From Candidatus Hadarchaeales archaeon (GTDB lineage: Archaea; Hadarchaeota; Hadarchaeia; Hadarchaeales; JAWBSP01), in the NCBI GenBank assembly GCA_038842485.1, contig JAWBSP010000006.1, forward strand, positions 1 to 55,301: 55,301 bases of DNA, given 5' to 3'. Below, in pieces: positions 49,462-54,813 of the stretch. Made by a program: the position numbers and the translations under genes. The notes under the pieces are model-generated. The model was not told where the DNA came from. It made no database searches and was given only the letters and a program-made list of their open reading frames with translations. The stretch's first letter is position 1. The number at the start of each line of letters is the position of its first letter.

Positions 49462-49922
49462 CTGTCGGTGGAACCTTTGATCACCTTCATGAGGGGCACA
49501 TAGCCCTACTCACCACCTGCTTCAAGGTGGGCGAGCAGGTACTGGTGGGGGTGTCTTCCGGAAAGCTCGCTAGGGGCAAGGGAGCCGAGCAGGGCTTTAG
49601 GGTTCGTTTGCAAAATCTCAGAAACTTTTTGAAGTCGCGGGGATGGTTGGAGAGGTGCCAGTTTGAGGAGCTTCATGATCCCTTTGGGTCAGCCCTCAAT
49701 GACCGGGAACTTGAAGCAATCGTGGTGAGTCCGGAAACTAGGGAGAGAGCCAAAGAACTCAACTTCAAAAGGCGGGAGAAGGGGCTGCCAGAGCTGGTAA
49801 TCGTGGAGGTGCCGTGGGTTCTTGCAGAAGATGGATTCCCCATCTCCTCTGAGAGAATCAGAAGGAAGGAGATCGATATTCACGGCAGGGTGATTAAGAG
49901 GTCGAGGCGGATTTCGGGATGA
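49446..49922 (+). CDS. coaD: Phosphopantetheine adenylyltransferase (archaeal type)
   Basis: VGGTFDHLHEGH, IVVSPET, PISSERIR. Confidence 0.92.
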   Translation: MFKKVAVGGTFDHLHEGHIALLTTCFKVGEQVLVGVSSGKLARGKGAEQGFRVRLQNLRNFLKSRGWLERCQFEELHDPFGSALNDRELEAIVVSPETRERAKELNFKRREKGLPELVIVEVPWVLAEDGFPISSERIRRKEIDIHGRVIKRSRRISG

Positions 49923-50446
49923 GGGCAGACACCAGACCCACCAAGGACGAGTACTACCTGGAGATAGCAAGGGCCGTGGCTTTCAGATCCCCCTGTCTCA
50001 GAAGGAGATTCGGAGCCATCATAGTGAAGGAGGACACCATCGTGAGCACGGGGTACAACGGGCCGGCTAGGGGCGTCATAAACTGCCTAGAGGTGGGGTG
50101 CATAAAGGAGGAACTGAATCTTCCCCACTATTCCGCCTACGAGTTCTGTCCTGCGACCCACGCGGAGGAAAACGCGATAATAAACGCGGCAAGGCACGGA
50201 GCGAGCGTTCTTGGGGGAATTCTGTATCTTTACGGAGTGGGGCCAGATGAGAGGCCAGCGGAGGCCAGACCCTGCGAGAGGTGCAGGAGGGTGATAATAA
50301 ACGCGGGGATAGAGAGAGTGGTCATACGGAGGGAGGATGGAAGCGTTTTCAAAATCGATGTGCAGGATTGGGTCAGGGAGGATACCGAGCTTTACAAGAA
50401 GAGGTTGGCGGAGGCGAGGAAGGGTGCGGGCCAAGTTAAAGGTTGA
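49919..50446 (+). CDS. dCMP deaminase family protein
   Basis: STGYNG, HAEENAI, PCERC. Confidence 0.9.
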   Translation: MRADTRPTKDEYYLEIARAVAFRSPCLRRRFGAIIVKEDTIVSTGYNGPARGVINCLEVGCIKEELNLPHYSAYEFCPATHAEENAIINAARHGASVLGGILYLYGVGPDERPAEARPCERCRRVIINAGIERVVIRREDGSVFKIDVQDWVREDTELYKKRLAEARKGAGQVKG

Positions 50447-51047
50447 GCTGGTGGCTTACACGCCGAATCCTGTCGAGCTCTGCGGGAGGGCGGCAGGGGT
50501 TTCGTATGACAAGGAGGAGAAGGAGGACTATGGAGCCTTCATCCGCAGAATTGTTGCGTTAGGCCACGAGAGCGTCTTGGAGCACGCTTCCTTCACTTTC
50601 CGGGTGGAGGGCATCAGCCGGGCCCTGAGCCACCAGTGGGTGAGGCACAGGATTTGCTCCTTCACCCAGCGGAGCCAGCGTAGGGTCGATGAGAGCAGGG
50701 GAGGATATGTTCTCCCCCCTCTCGACTACTTGGAGGAAAAGAAGAGGGAGGAGGTGAGGGGGAAGATGGAGGCGTTCATCAAGAGCTCCTTCGATCTCTA
50801 CCGGGAACTCAGGGAGGCTGGGGTGAGGGCCGAGGATGCACGCTACGTCCTTACCAATGCGACCGAGACCAAGATTTACTGGACGGCAAACGCCAGGGAG
50901 CTCAGGCATTTCTTTAGGCTGAGGCTCCACAAGGAGTCCCAGTGGGAAATCAGGCAGATGGCCCAGCAGATGTTTGATCTGGTCTACAGGGTCGCCCCGC
51001 CACTGTTCGAGGATCTCAGACGCCTGAGGGAGACCGGGGAACCCTAA
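50424..51047 (+). CDS. thyX: Flavin-dependent thymidylate synthase
   Basis: GHESVLEH, RHRICSFTQRSQR, EDARYVL, NARELRHF, QWEIR. Start set to GTG 50424. Confidence 0.95.
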   Translation: MRAKLKVELVAYTPNPVELCGRAAGVSYDKEEKEDYGAFIRRIVALGHESVLEHASFTFRVEGISRALSHQWVRHRICSFTQRSQRRVDESRGGYVLPPLDYLEEKKREEVRGKMEAFIKSSFDLYRELREAGVRAEDARYVLTNATETKIYWTANARELRHFFRLRLHKESQWEIRQMAQQMFDLVYRVAPPLFEDLRRLRETGEP

Positions 51048-51061
51048 TCGCAGCCGATACG

Positions 51062-51757
51062 TCAGGCCCCCAGCATCCGGCTGTCTTGGGGGTACTTGGT
51101 GTACACGTAGTCTAGGAGTTTTTTGAGCGGCATCTGACCGAACTTCCTCAGGCTAAGCAGGGCGCTCTTCACCTCATCTGGCTGCGACTCGAAGACCTCC
51201 TTCGCCACCTTCTTGCCATCCTCCGTAAGGGAGACCAGCAGGGGTTCAGCAAGTTCCCTCACCGAGCTCACCCAGCCGGCGTTCTCCAAATCCATGAGGT
51301 CTCCGTAAATCTCCCCGCAGAAGGGTCCGTGGTGGAAGGGGAGGTGGGTGTAGGGGGTCGCAATCCCTCCCTCCTTCTTCAGCAGGAAGAGCAGTTTCTG
51401 AAGCCGCACCGCGCTCTCCAAGCTTCCCCCCATCACGTGCAGGAGGGAAAGCAGCCACTTCCCCTTCTCCTTGAGTTCCCTCTCACTGAGCTTTTTCCGC
51501 TTTCCCACCAGGGTCGTCTCCAGCCTGAGCATCTCGGCGATTTTTCTCCCCTTTTCCGTCAGCGTGAGCAGCTTCTTGTAGGGCCAGCTCTTGGACTCCT
51601 CCTCCTTTATCAGGCCAGCCCGCTCCAGCTCTATAATCCTCAACCCGATGGTGTTGGGGCTCCCTCCTATCGCTTCCCGGAGTTCCCTCACCCCCCTCGG
51701 CTTCGAGAGCAGGGCAAGCAGGATCTCCGTCGCTTTCTCTCTCCTTACTTCCTCCAT
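51062..51757 (-). CDS. Putative transcriptional regulator: N-terminal wHTH plus Panacea/DUF4065-like C-terminal domain
   Basis: GVRELREAIGGSPNTIGLRIIELERAGLI...LTEKG (wHTH); RLQKLLFLL...PFHHGPF...DLMDLENAGWV...YVYTKYP. ATG at 51757 chosen as start. Confidence 0.7.
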   Translation of the reverse strand: MEEVRREKATEILLALLSKPRGVRELREAIGGSPNTIGLRIIELERAGLIKEEESKSWPYKKLLTLTEKGRKIAEMLRLETTLVGKRKKLSERELKEKGKWLLSLLHVMGGSLESAVRLQKLLFLLKKEGGIATPYTHLPFHHGPFCGEIYGDLMDLENAGWVSSVRELAEPLLVSLTEDGKKVAKEVFESQPDEVKSALLSLRKFGQMPLKKLLDYVYTKYPQDSRMLGA

Positions 51758-51764
51758 TGTTATT

Positions 51765-51885
51765 TGGTATGTAAACCGTAACATTTAAATATTTCGGTTC
51801 CAAGTAAAATCAAACCCATTGGGGCGGGATTTAAAAGATTGTTACACTAACCGTAACACTTATATGTGGTATGATTGCTGTAACA
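51765..51885. promoter_or_regulatory. Three 19-bp palindromic operator-like boxes in a divergent promoter
   Basis: TGGTAT-GTAAACC-GTAACA at 51765-51783; TGTTAC-ACTAACC-GTAACA at 51840-51858; TGGTAT-GATTGCT-GTAACA at 51867-51885. TATA-like TTTAAA at 51784 and TTATAT at 51860. Confidence 0.8.
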
Positions 51886-51898
51886 TTGGGGGTAAAAA

Positions 51899-52603
51899 GT
51901 GTTCGAGCATGTGAAGGGACTTCTCAAAACCTCTCTGATCGACTATCCGGGCAAGGTCGCCGCAGTGCTGTTTTTGGGCGGCTGTAACTTTAGGTGCCCG
52001 TACTGCTACAACACAGACCTCGTCCTCAACCCCTCCTCCCTCCCCTCGCTGACTCAAGAGGAACTCTCTAGGTTTTTGGCCTCAAGAAAGGGGTGGCTAG
52101 ACGGGGTGGTGATCTCCGGGGGGGAACCTACCATACACGAGAACCTCCCCCAGTTTCTCGCTTGGATCAAGGAATTCGGGTACGCAGTCAAGCTGGACAC
52201 AAACGGCTCCAACCCCTCCATGCTCCAATCCCTTATCGAGCGCGAACTCGTAGACTATGTTGCCTTGGATGTGAAGGCTCCTCTGGTTCATGAGAGATAC
52301 GTGACCTTCTCCCAGCTCAACGGGGGGGAGGAGGTGAGGAGGGCGGCGGAGATCCTCATGGGTTCCTCCATCGATTACGAGTTCAGGACCACGGTCGTTC
52401 CTGGTCTGCTCTCGAGGGAGGACATCCTCATGATCGCCGAGCAGCTCAAGGGGGCCAAGAGATACTACCTCCAGCAGTTCAGGCCTTCGGAGAAACTGGT
52501 GGACCCGGTGTTTTGCTCGGTCAGGCCCTATCCCCTCGAGTTCCTGCAGAAGTTGAGGGACGAGATCTCAGCCTACTTCAAGGTCTGCAGGGTGAGGTTC
52601 TAG
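51899..52603 (+). CDS. nrdG: Anaerobic ribonucleotide reductase activating enzyme
   Basis: SLIDYPG, GCNFRCPYCYN, SGGEPT, KLDTNG, EFRTTVVP. Confidence 0.93.
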   Translation: MFEHVKGLLKTSLIDYPGKVAAVLFLGGCNFRCPYCYNTDLVLNPSSLPSLTQEELSRFLASRKGWLDGVVISGGEPTIHENLPQFLAWIKEFGYAVKLDTNGSNPSMLQSLIERELVDYVALDVKAPLVHERYVTFSQLNGGEEVRRAAEILMGSSIDYEFRTTVVPGLLSREDILMIAEQLKGAKRYYLQQFRPSEKLVDPVFCSVRPYPLEFLQKLRDEISAYFKVCRVRF

Positions 52604-52604
52604 C

Positions 52605-54674
52605 ATGCCGCTGGTCAAGGTGATAAGGAGGGACGGAACGGTTGTGCCCTATGACAGGGAGAGAATAGCCAATGCCATATGGAAAGCAGCCCAAGCGGTG
52701 GGTGGAAAAGACAGGAAGAGGGCGGAGAGGCTAGCTGAGGAGGTCGAGGCTTACCTGATCGAGCAGGGATTCGGACCTGAGAACCCACCCCACATCGAGC
52801 AGATTCAGGACGCCGTAGAGAAGATACTCATCGAGCGGGGGCATGCTAGGACGGCAAAGGCCTTCATTCTGTACAGGAGGCAGAGGGAGGAGCTGAGAAG
52901 GGTTGGGGTGGAGGTCCAAGTCACGAAGCTGGTGGACGACTACCTGAACCTCCGCGACTGGAGGGTGAAGGAGAACAGCAACATGGGGTTCTCCCTTTCC
53001 GGCCTCCTCTTCCACATCGGGACCTCCGTGATTGCGAAGTACACCCTGATGAAAGTCTATCCCCCCGAGATCGCTGCCGCCCACGTCCACGGAGATTTTC
53101 ACATCCACGATCTAGGCTTTGGCATCTCCGGCTACTGCGCGGGCTGGTCCCTCCAGCAACTCCTACTCGAGGGCTTCAACGGTGTCCCCGGCAAGGTCTC
53201 CTCCAAGCCACCCAAACACCTGGACACCGCGCTCCTCCAGATGTCCAACTTCGTGGGCTCGCTTCAGAACGAGTGGGCGGGGGCCCAGGCCTTCAATGCC
53301 GTTGATGTTCTGCTTGCCCCCTTCGTCAGGACCGACGGGCTCTCTTACCGGGAGGTGAAGCAGAAGATCCAGCAGTTCGTCTACAACCTCAATATTTCTT
53401 CCCGCTGGGGAGGGCAGACCCCCTTCACCAATATCTCCCTCAGCCTTACCGTGCCCGATGACCTTGCGGGAACCCCTGCCATCGTGGGGGGACGGCCCTT
53501 AGACAAGACCTACGAGGAGTTCGGGGAGGAGGTGGAGCTGATTGACAGGGCCTTCATAGAGGTGATGACGGAGGGAGACGCGCAGGGGCGCCCCTTCACC
53601 TTCCCCATCCCCACCTTCGGCCTCACCCGGGACTTTGAGTGGGACAACGGAATCTCCTCGCTCCTTTTCGAGATGACCGCCAAGTACGGCCTCCCCTACT
53701 TCCAGAACTTCATCAACTCCCACCTCAGCCCGAGCGATGTGCGGAGCATGTGCTGCCACCTGAGCCTGAGGCTGGACGAGCTGAGGCGCAACGTGACGGG
53801 AGGGCTCTTCGGCTCGGGAGACAAGACGGGGTCTGTCGGGGTGGTAACCATCAACATGCCTAGGATAGGCTACCTCTCGGAGGACGAGTCCGAGTTCTTC
53901 GAGAAGCTGGAACACCTCATGAACCTTGCCAAGGTTTCGCTTGAAATCAAGCGGAAGGAGGTAACGAGGAAGATGAACTCGGGTCTGCTGCCCTACACCA
54001 AGCGATACCTCGGAACCCTCGACTTCCACTTCTCCACCATCGGGCTTGTTGGGATGCATGAGGCCTGCCTTAACATGGGGATTGAGGGCGGCATCGTCGG
54101 GCAGGAGGGGAGGAACTTCGCGCTGAAGGTTCTCAGGTTCATGCTCAGGAAGATAAGGGAGTTCCAGCAGGAGACCGGCCATCTGTACAACCTCGAGGCC
54201 ACGCCCGCCGAGGGGACCAGCTACCGGCTTGCGCGAATCGATAAGCAGAAGTATCCCAGCATCCTGACTTCGGGCGAGAGGGCTCCCTACTACACCAACT
54301 CCACCTGCCTTCCAGTGAACGCGGACCTCGACCTCTGGGATGCCATCAGGCACCAAGAACCCCTCCAGACCCTCTACACTGGCGGGACGGTCTTCCACAC
54401 ATACCTGGGGGAGAGGTTGGAGGACGGGGAGAGCTGCAAGAACCTGATCAGGAAGATGGCCGAGAGGTCAAGGCTCCCCTACTTCACGGTGACCCCCACC
54501 TTCTCCATCTGTCCCGACCATGGCTACCTTCCGGGCGAATATCCCCTCTGCCCATCCTGCGGCGCGGAAACCGAGGTCTACTCTAGAGTGGTGGGGTACT
54601 TCAGGCCCGTCAAGAACTGGAACGAGGGGAAGCAGGAGGAGTTCAGGCAGAGGAGAACCTTCGAAAGGGGGTGA
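52605..54674 (+). CDS. nrdD: Class III ribonucleoside-triphosphate reductase with ATP cone
   Basis: N-terminal ATP cone (VIRRDG...EQIQDAVE), HIHDL, YCAGW, RSMCC, EATPAEG, C-terminal Zn site and YSRVVGY glycyl-radical motif. Confidence 0.96.
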   Translation: MPLVKVIRRDGTVVPYDRERIANAIWKAAQAVGGKDRKRAERLAEEVEAYLIEQGFGPENPPHIEQIQDAVEKILIERGHARTAKAFILYRRQREELRRVGVEVQVTKLVDDYLNLRDWRVKENSNMGFSLSGLLFHIGTSVIAKYTLMKVYPPEIAAAHVHGDFHIHDLGFGISGYCAGWSLQQLLLEGFNGVPGKVSSKPPKHLDTALLQMSNFVGSLQNEWAGAQAFNAVDVLLAPFVRTDGLSYREVKQKIQQFVYNLNISSRWGGQTPFTNISLSLTVPDDLAGTPAIVGGRPLDKTYEEFGEEVELIDRAFIEVMTEGDAQGRPFTFPIPTFGLTRDFEWDNGISSLLFEMTAKYGLPYFQNFINSHLSPSDVRSMCCHLSLRLDELRRNVTGGLFGSGDKTGSVGVVTINMPRIGYLSEDESEFFEKLEHLMNLAKVSLEIKRKEVTRKMNSGLLPYTKRYLGTLDFHFSTIGLVGMHEACLNMGIEGGIVGQEGRNFALKVLRFMLRKIREFQQETGHLYNLEATPAEGTSYRLARIDKQKYPSILTSGERAPYYTNSTCLPVNADLDLWDAIRHQEPLQTLYTGGTVFHTYLGERLEDGESCKNLIRKMAERSRLPYFTVTPTFSICPDHGYLPGEYPLCPSCGAETEVYSRVVGYFRPVKNWNEGKQEEFRQRRTFERG

Positions 54675-54678
54675 GAAG

Positions 54679-54813
54679 ATGAACTGCCCAAACTGCGGGT
54701 CCCCGCTCCGGGTCTTCTGCGTGGCGGTTGAAAGGAGGCCACGCTGCAAAGCCTGCGGGAAGCCCCTAGATGAGATGGGAATAGCGCACAACGGGGGAGA
54801 GGTAGAGTACTAG
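54679..54813 (+). CDS. 44-aa zinc-ribbon protein
   Basis: MNCPNCG...RCKACG; GGGGTGA SD-like motif just upstream; 4 bp after the nrdD stop. Confidence 0.6.
   Translation: MNCPNCGSPLRVFCVAVERRPRCKACGKPLDEMGIAHNGGEVEY

Follow-up and report, generated by a model that had tools for sequence, protein, structure and literature searches.

The stretch of DNA analysed here, referred to below as the window, comprises 55,301 nucleotides (nt) of contig JAWBSP010000006.1 from a Candidatus Hadarchaeales archaeon (assembly GCA_038842485.1) and carries, back to back, a gene for a putative winged helix-turn-helix (wHTH) regulator and the nrdG-nrdD operon of a class III ribonucleotide reductase (RNR). The window genome (G000) has 943,141 bases in 27 contigs and is 88.9% complete, and, with rows of small share left aside, the sequencing runs containing the window DNA are labelled hot-spring metagenome. 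Comparisons extended over a phylum set of 66 Hadarchaeota species genomes, in which G stands for genome, L for locus, g for genus, and f for family. The regulator gene occupies 51062-51757 on the minus strand, with its stop codon at 51062-51064, and encodes 231 amino acids (aa). Its start is taken to be the ATG at 51757, not position 51784 of the longest open reading frame (ORF), because 28 homologues start at the aligned methionine. On the plus strand, and separated from the regulator by a gap of 141 bp, nrdG begins with a GTG at 51899; it encodes the radical-SAM activase of class III RNR (51899-52603, 234 aa; TIGR02495 with E 1.7e-60 and 203.7 bits vs. a cut-off of 131). It is followed by nrdD, the gene of the class III ribonucleoside-triphosphate reductase (52605-54674, plus strand, 689 aa; NRDD with E 4.6e-183), whose product bears an N-terminal ATP-cone at residues 5-96 (52617-52892, plus strand; E 2.9e-22).

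The gap holds three boxes, which an earlier sequence-only reading had proposed to be the operators of an autoregulated repressor; the coordinates that it gave for the boxes, the TATA-like elements, and the start codons turned out to be exact. Box 1 (TGGTAT-N7-GTAACA, 51765-51783) separates the regulator's TATA-like element from the start codon, at 7 nt from the ATG; it is presumed to be an autoregulatory operator. The TATA-like element in question, TTTAAATA, spans 51784-51791 on the minus strand, with its TTTAAA at 51784 adjoining box 1. Its position, 27-34 nt before the ATG, predicts an mRNA with little or no leader. Relatives keep a TTTAAATA-type element beside the regulator-side box. Box 2, a perfect inverted repeat (TGTTAC-N7-GTAACA, 51840-51858), stands directly 5′ of the TATA-like TTATAT (51860-51865, plus strand), at the position of the transcription factor B recognition element (BRE), and directly 3′ of a second TATA-like element, TTTAAAAG (51831-51838). 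TTATAT is likely the nrdG TATA, and an A/T-rich element at its position is kept in both other genomes of the genus (L002 and L003); TTTAAAAG, which the sequence-only reading did not mention, is the alternative. Box 3 (TGGTAT-N7-GTAACA, 51867-51885) falls between TTATAT and a Shine-Dalgarno-like GGGGGT (51889-51894, plus strand) in front of the nrdG GTG. The layout in the genus of the window is a stretched one: one TATA-like element and box 1 belong to the regulator alone, and nrdG is preceded by box 2, TTATAT, box 3, and GGGGGT. Whichever TATA serves nrdG, each promoter has a box between its TATA and the expected start site.

The box pattern of the sequence-only reading is found at three places in the window (four matches if the palindrome is counted on each strand), with an expectation of 0.00 from 100 dinucleotide-preserving shuffles of the window. 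A scan of the whole genome, as had been suggested, returned these three places only. From the intergenic regions of relatives, the core operator was defined as GTTAC-N7-GTAAC, a 17-bp palindrome; when 41 distinct boxes are counted symmetrically, the wider consensus is YGTTAC-R-n-WWW-n-Y-GTAACR. The exact core occurs twice in the window genome, as box 2 and in front of top6B, vs. about 0.6 copies expected from base composition. Boxes 1 and 3 each combine one perfect half-site with a half that has two mismatches to the core. Among the closest relatives, the orthologous sites show no or one mismatch (L002, at offsets 9, 83, and 113), the one orthologous to box 3 being an exact core in L002. A further site with one mismatch to the core, at G000:C25:7613, was treated as chance: it has no gene start nearby, and there are five such sites vs. 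about 20 expected.

Of the 66 genomes of the phylum, 32 have a match to the regulator, which is full length in 28. A word-indexed protein database contains 22 relatives, 18 of them full length, and a search of it with the C-terminal domain alone gave one further weak match (P0023). The full-length relatives in the genome collection are all titled Hadarchaeota or Hadesarchaea, save one 'uncultured archaeon' record, and the remaining matches there span the C-terminal half only. The protein is most likely a transcription factor specific to Hadarchaeota. It is encoded divergently from nrdG-nrdD, or directly from nrdD, in 24 of the 28 full-length loci. In a twenty-fifth (L070 of G024), an insertion of about 1.7 kb separates the regulator from nrdG, and nrdG has a box of its own. 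The three exceptions all belong to genus g15, where the regulator gene is convergent with a 105-aa DUF5615/PIN_10 gene. The synteny with nrd and the boxes that accompany it are kept over five families, with regulators that are 40-69% identical. Regulator and box, taken as a cognate pair, thus pass the refuting condition set by the sequence-only reading, since boxes are present wherever the synteny persists. Downstream, the regulator has as its neighbours thyX or a dCMP deaminase gene (f1, f5, g5), a gene for a Ham1-type inosine triphosphatase (ITPase; g7), or one for a DUF434+DUF5616 protein (g3). Because of the thyX, dCMP deaminase, and Ham1 ITPase neighbours, the region can be regarded as a small island of deoxynucleoside triphosphate (dNTP) metabolism.

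The distribution of the box follows that of the regulator strictly. There are 67 exact core sites in all across the 66 genomes. Every one of the 28 genomes with a full-length regulator has at least one exact core within 500 bp of the regulator gene, and 36 of the 53 exact sites in these genomes lie within that distance. The 38 genomes lacking a full-length regulator have 14 exact sites, a number similar to that of the reversed-pattern control; two of the 14 represent a site conserved in genus g7 and come from incomplete genomes. A box at the position orthologous to box 1 is present in all 25 syntenic loci. It lies no more than 23 nt upstream of the aligned start in 24 of them; in the remaining one (L027), where the alignment starts at query residue 20, it is 63 nt away from the first aligned codon. 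Twelve of the 25 have a second box 30-39 bp further on, and a lone TTTAAATA- or TATAAATA-like element, able to serve both divergent genes, stands between the paired boxes. Judged from TATA-like elements and start codons, with the start sites inferred, these positions fit an operator placed over the TATA/BRE or between the TATA and the start. Comparison of nrd loci points the same way. The ATP-cone nrdGD of genomes with an nrd-linked regulator has boxes in all eight loci listed. No box was found at the 12 ATP-cone nrd loci of genera g10, g13, and g15, which have no nrd-linked regulator, at the nine nrd paralogues lacking an ATP-cone, or at the ATP-cone locus of G023, a genome in which no regulator was found. 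The box, therefore, goes with the regulator and not with nrd as such.

Judging by the boxes, the core targets are nrd and the regulator gene itself only, and single lineages add others. In front of top6B, which top6A follows, an exact core lies directly between the ATG and a TATA-like element (G000:C16:17374-18918; L031 972-2521). It is kept in all three genomes of genus g1 (exact, exact, and one mismatch) and is absent from the 26 other loci scored (29 of 30 loci were scored overall), which makes it lineage-specific. This points to a regulon extended to topoisomerase VI in genus g1 only. The Top6B encoded at L035 (G061:C170) is 77% identical to that of the window genome, compared with about 43% in other f5 genomes, and its gene has a degenerate box only; contig G061:C170 may be misbinned from a genus-g1 organism. 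In seven g7 genomes (L063-L065, L076-L079), the space between a cation-efflux gene of the cation-diffusion-facilitator type (PF01545) and a divergent gene contains a perfect TGTTAC-N7-GTAACA. The divergent gene encodes an unknown protein of about 230 aa that no Pfam model matches, and two of the genomes with this box have no assembled regulator. Genome G011 has boxes before genes for a DEAD/XPB-like helicase and a DacZ-type diadenylate cyclase.

The regulator protein consists of two domains (pLDDT 86.1 for the full-length model). The N-terminal one, at residues 7-83 (51509-51739, minus strand), is an HxlR-type wHTH with three helices, a beta wing, and a further helix at 68-83. The proposal that a wHTH is present holds: PF01638 is matched above its cut-off (E 3.9e-6, 27.1 bits vs. 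20.8) and matches all 28 family members. Fold comparison leads to YodB (5hs7; profile E 5e-6, Foldseek 3.8e-4), to 1yyv (Foldseek 5.2e-4), and to QsrR on DNA (4hqe; 1.2e-3). The domain thus resembles HxlR/MarR-type repressors whose structures were solved on palindromic DNA, QsrR-DNA being an example. The recognition helix is conserved among the 28 homologues, with G32, S33, T36, and R40 invariant, which fits the conserved half-site of the operator. No cysteine is conserved, and a thiol redox switch of the YodB type is, therefore, unlikely. A homodimer prediction reached a score of 0.36 against a mark of 0.42 and counts neither way.

The C-terminal domain, at residues 92-224 (51086-51484, minus strand), has a winged-helix-like core followed by C-terminal helices; modelled alone (pLDDT 91.5), it shows helices and short strands. 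Residues K121, F124, L125, Y136, G144, P145, L177, T178, and G181 are invariant, and the residue after G144-P145 is F, Y, or H. The sequence-only reading had called this domain Panacea-like, a label that stands in part. A direct match is lacking: PF13274 (SocA_Panacea) does not match the window protein at E ≤ 0.1 or any of the 28 family members at E ≤ 0.05. The label is upheld by intermediates and by the G-P motif. A profile of the domain matches 6,866 representative proteins at E ≤ 1e-3. Among 69 stand-alone C-domain proteins scanned, taken from the best 150 matches (all with E ≤ 1e-25), 29 match SocA_Panacea, with a best value of 1.4e-8, and 15 match PadR. P0019, a PF13274 protein, in turn matches the regulator at 1.8e-7. 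In the passages of PMC8832971 available, the conserved GPV-type motif of the Panacea domain is placed in a small beta sheet that surrounds a central helix, and G144-P145 corresponds to this 'GPV' signature. The best fold match is the DarG chain bound to DarT in 7yk3 (VIA Z 11.0 over 133 residues, with a root-mean-square deviation of 4.3; Foldseek TMq 0.60; profile E 0.086; 14-17% identity); next come ordinary winged-helix proteins with about 90 residues and Z of at most 9.2. The domain is a winged-helix-derived module of the Panacea superfamily, beyond the current Pfam model. The name 'YwgA-like', also applicable to it, comes from the JGI annotation of P0005, and the literature on YwgA yielded nothing useful on function. 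Sensing of ATP, dATP, or other dNTPs by the C-domain, which the sequence-only reading had raised, was considered and drew no supporting result.

To our knowledge, the control of RNR transcription in archaea that do not have NrdR is largely unknown. The window genome has no match to the NrdR model TIGR00244, and none of the 66 genomes passes its cut-off, as the sequence-only reading had anticipated in speaking of non-NrdR control. The weak matches in the phylum are the ATP-cones of other proteins, and the only ATP-cone of the window genome is that of NrdD. A class I or II RNR large subunit was not found in the window genome. A second class III pair is encoded at G000:C4:23040-25435 (L110), with nrdD preceding nrdG. 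Its NrdD is 60% identical to that of the window and has no ATP-cone, its radical-SAM activase is 34% identical to the product of the window nrdG, and no box accompanies it. This second, unregulated pair had escaped the sequence-only reading, as had the lineage-specific extra targets and the toxin-antitoxin (TA) and defence contexts of distant relatives. Class III types with and without the ATP-cone co-occur in many genomes of the phylum. Since the second nrdD-nrdG pair has no box, the regulator governs, in our reading, one of two class III systems. The regulated nrdD of relatives, for example at G063:C1:31424-35644, G062:C2:61985-65851, G059:C2:66413-69265, and G011:C14:6645-9263, matches NRDD in two or three pieces within open, stop-free frames of 1,000-1,662 aa; these NrdD proteins look like intein-containing ones, and the nrdD of the window has no intein.

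More distant relatives of the C-domain occur in other settings. For 35 of 47 stand-alone C-domain proteins, the next gene downstream on the same strand either overlaps theirs or lies at most 20 nt away, as in TA pairs. Scanning of 37 partner proteins gave a few of PIN type, most having no family match. Such tight two-gene operons fit the published Panacea antitoxins, 343 of which (PanA proteins) carry an N-terminal HTH according to the accessible part of PMC8832971. The C-domain also matches the PADLOC model PDC-M19A at 3e-12. In genus g15, an exact box precedes the PIN-like DUF5615/PIN_10 gene in all three genomes. At two of these loci (L074 2678-3047 and L075 3133-3496), the box is in the promoter of the toxin-like gene, and none lies upstream of the regulator itself. 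Thirteen metagenome loci carry full-length relatives. Eight of them are nrd-linked and have boxes. In three others, BilA/BilC-like genes (ubiquitin-like and JAB) diverge from that of the relative, whose identity is 39%, and the boxes ATTAC-N7-GTAAG and CTTAC-N7-GTAAT lie around a TATA element; on one Bil-linked contig (L192 169-1750), the two variant boxes flank TATATATAAA. L202 has overlapping exact boxes, neighbours of unassigned function, and a dCTP-deaminase-like gene about 2 kb from its start, and L194 shows no clear box. In the regulator tree, the PIN-linked g15 proteins form a long branch whose neighbour is an nrd-linked sequence from their own family (support 85/94); the tree is rooted at the midpoint only, its backbone is not resolved, and it gives no order of the nrd-linked and the TA- or defence-linked forms.

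Taken together, these data make it probable that the protein acts as a dimer on GTTAC-N7-GTAAC and represses its own gene as well as one of the two class III RNR operons. In archaea, a protein bound between the TATA and the start site blocks recruitment of the polymerase. From the position of the boxes we infer both autoregulation and repression, and the following scheme can be proposed. A dimer would bind the 17-bp palindrome through the HxlR-type winged helix. Bound at box 1, between the regulator TATA and the start, it would repress its own gene, and boxes 2 and 3 would clamp the TATA of the divergent nrdG-nrdD. The bound protein would thereby hinder binding of the TATA-binding protein (TBP) and transcription factor B (TFB) or recruitment of RNA polymerase, and repression would fall on the operon that encodes the NrdD with an ATP-cone. 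Control over release from DNA presumably lies with the C-terminal Panacea-like domain, a type of module that binds proteins in TA systems. Its candidate signals are, in order, a protein partner, proteolysis, and a small ligand; the partner is ranked first because of what the Panacea superfamily does.

Several observations weigh against this scheme or narrow it. Sites with up to two mismatches to the core number nine in the window vs. 6.26 expected, so that boxes 1 and 3 by themselves are at chance level and owe their credibility solely to where they lie and to the conserved sites of relatives. Two of the 25 syntenic loci (L015 and L023) have a decayed box on the nrdG side, and five of the six f5 loci have a divergent nrdG-side element, with half-sites GTTAC and ATAAC 14 nt apart around TTTTAAAAA. 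Many Hadarchaeota have an ATP-cone nrdGD without the regulator, which is, therefore, not essential to RNR control. With a genome that is incomplete, 'absent' in the window genome has to be read as 'not found'. Finally, each promoter also has a box just upstream of its TATA, at the place where archaeal activators bind, so that activation or a dual role has to be reckoned with.

The last point leads to an alternative in which the protein activates or dually regulates nrdGD, recruiting TBP/TFB from a box upstream of the BRE/TATA, and represses its own gene only. Archaeal activator sites do lie directly upstream of the BRE/TATA, and in the box-TATA-box unit the TATA of each gene always has one box immediately upstream; yet a box also lies between the TATA and the start codon at every promoter, and the extra target top6B is laid out as TATA-box-ATG, with no upstream box, in all three genomes of its genus. 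We regard this alternative as unlikely. The palindromes might, instead, be bound by some other factor or be structural parts of a bidirectional promoter, with the winged-helix protein having another target. What speaks for such a reading is that binding of the boxes by the regulator is deduced from their co-occurrence; but with a box in 28 of 28 regulator genomes and chance level elsewhere, and with a box that follows the regulator to non-nrd neighbours and is absent from nrd promoters where there is no regulator, it appears barely plausible.

The relatives described above suggest a different alternative, namely that the protein is a regulator of TA or defence islands, an HTH-Panacea antitoxin, and that its place next to nrdGD is incidental or serves a function in conflict, such as a transcriptional shut-off of dNTP supply during infection, instead of housekeeping control. 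The tight gene pairs of stand-alone relatives, the g15 homologues that adjoin a box-carrying DUF5615/PIN_10 gene, the relative divergent from Bil-like genes, the PADLOC match, and the HTH that PanA antitoxins bear (PMC8832971, in the part available) all agree with it. Set against them are the lack of a same-strand gene after the regulator in the window, where thyX is convergent at 15 nt, the nrd synteny and nrd-promoter boxes kept across five families, the housekeeping character of the neighbouring dNTP-metabolism genes, and the tree, which puts the long PIN-linked g15 branch next to an nrd-linked member of the same family. This makes the antitoxin alternative very unlikely, and repression of class III RNR remains the preferred interpretation. 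One extension of the latter is rather doubtful but deserves mention: a Panacea module, a sensor from conflict systems whose usual task is to grip a toxin, may have been recruited in Hadarchaeota to place DNA-precursor synthesis under a protein-partner signal or one of damage or infection, some lineages adding topoisomerase VI, a helicase, the c-di-AMP cyclase DacZ, or a metal exporter. If that is so, the regulator would head a small archaeal replication-stress or antiviral regulon and not a simple feedback on the nucleotide pool; in function it would resemble LexA or Crt1/RFX, or it would bring dNTP-depletion defence to the level of transcription.

Some further features of the window complete the picture. 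On the other side of the regulator, the identification of thyX and of the dCMP deaminase gene by the sequence-only reading agrees with family-model matches (Thy1 with E 7.2e-65, and a match with E 4e-19 for the deaminase), as do its nrdG and nrdD calls with those given above. The frames as listed (dCMP deaminase 49919-50446 and thyX 50337-51047, both on the plus strand) overlap by about 110 nt, and the real thyX start is probably a codon inside the listed frame. Five nt past the nrdD stop begins a candidate 44-aa zinc-ribbon ORF of the CxxC...CxxC type (54679-54813, plus strand), with weak zinc-ribbon matches that are all under the cut-offs, and a 97-aa ORF starting at 54520 overlaps nrdD. In G057, a copy of the nrd-side box is found upstream of a 70-aa zinc-ribbon ORF on a separate contig (L071 2564-2832). 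RNA-library contigs of a relative that is about 94% identical cover the 3′ part of the regulator gene and nrdGD, and not thyX; being assembled contigs, which carry no information on start, strand, or level, they give a weak hint only that the regulator and nrdGD are expressed. The gap in this RNA cover at 51526-51893 was not taken as evidence of anything.

HTH-Panacea proteins and palindrome-binding winged-helix repressors are already known. What is new is a class III RNR target in a phylum that lacks NrdR, a defined operator, and the use of a Panacea-type regulator at a housekeeping operon, its sister proteins being found at toxin-like and defence genes. A literature search, with supplementary files outside its scope, found no archaeal RNR repressor of this kind and nothing linking Hadarchaeota with RNR control; the papers returned on RNR regulation dealt with NrdR or with RNR in general. 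Members of this phylum are almost uncultured. The system offers a sharply defined pair, a 231-aa protein and a 17-bp palindrome in a conserved box-TATA-box layout, together with natural controls in the form of genomes that have the same operon and neither the regulator nor the box. It places a Panacea-type domain, a 'hyperpromiscuous' antitoxin module, on the regulator of a core metabolic operon, and the same or a near-identical operator at the PIN-like and Bil-like relatives makes a concrete case for the redeployment of antitoxin-type regulators.

Among known systems, NrdR comes to mind first. According to the available passages of PMC9110341 and PMC13584703, it is a dedicated regulator, often autoregulated, with paired palindromic boxes over RNR promoters. 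The Hadarchaeota protein shares with it a putative dedicated role and paired palindromic boxes at an RNR promoter; however, it is unrelated and has neither a Zn-ribbon nor an ATP-cone. Whereas NrdR uses two 16-bp boxes with a linker of 15-16 bp, the operator here is the 17-bp GTTAC-N7-GTAAC, set in an archaeal TATA/BRE logic. The HTH-Panacea antitoxins (PanA, DUF4065/SocA-like) resemble it in combining an N-terminal HTH with a C-terminal Panacea-type domain, in the G-P motif, and in likely autoregulation, as far as the accessible part of PMC8832971 goes. They differ in that the window has no adjacent toxin gene, that the putative target is a housekeeping operon, and that the C-domain is a YwgA-like branch beyond the Pfam model. 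DarG of the M. tuberculosis DarT-DarG pair (7yk3), the best structural match of the C-domain, binds a toxin; there is no toxin here, and the identity is low, as noted above. The 7yk3 chain is probably the non-macrodomain, toxin-binding part of DarG; the passages of the review PMC8120803 are silent on the part. The HxlR/DUF24 redox regulators YodB, QsrR, and HypR have the DNA-binding fold, the family, and palindromic operators in common with the regulator. In contrast to it, they are about 100-120 aa long and possess sensing cysteines, while the Hadarchaeota protein has no conserved cysteine and an extra domain of about 140 aa. A more general likeness, in the presumed steric blocking of the pre-initiation complex and in the gating of RNR expression by a winged-helix factor, and with no homology claimed, is to archaeal repressors that bind between the TATA and the start and to Crt1/RFX, the winged-helix repressors of eukaryotic RNR genes.

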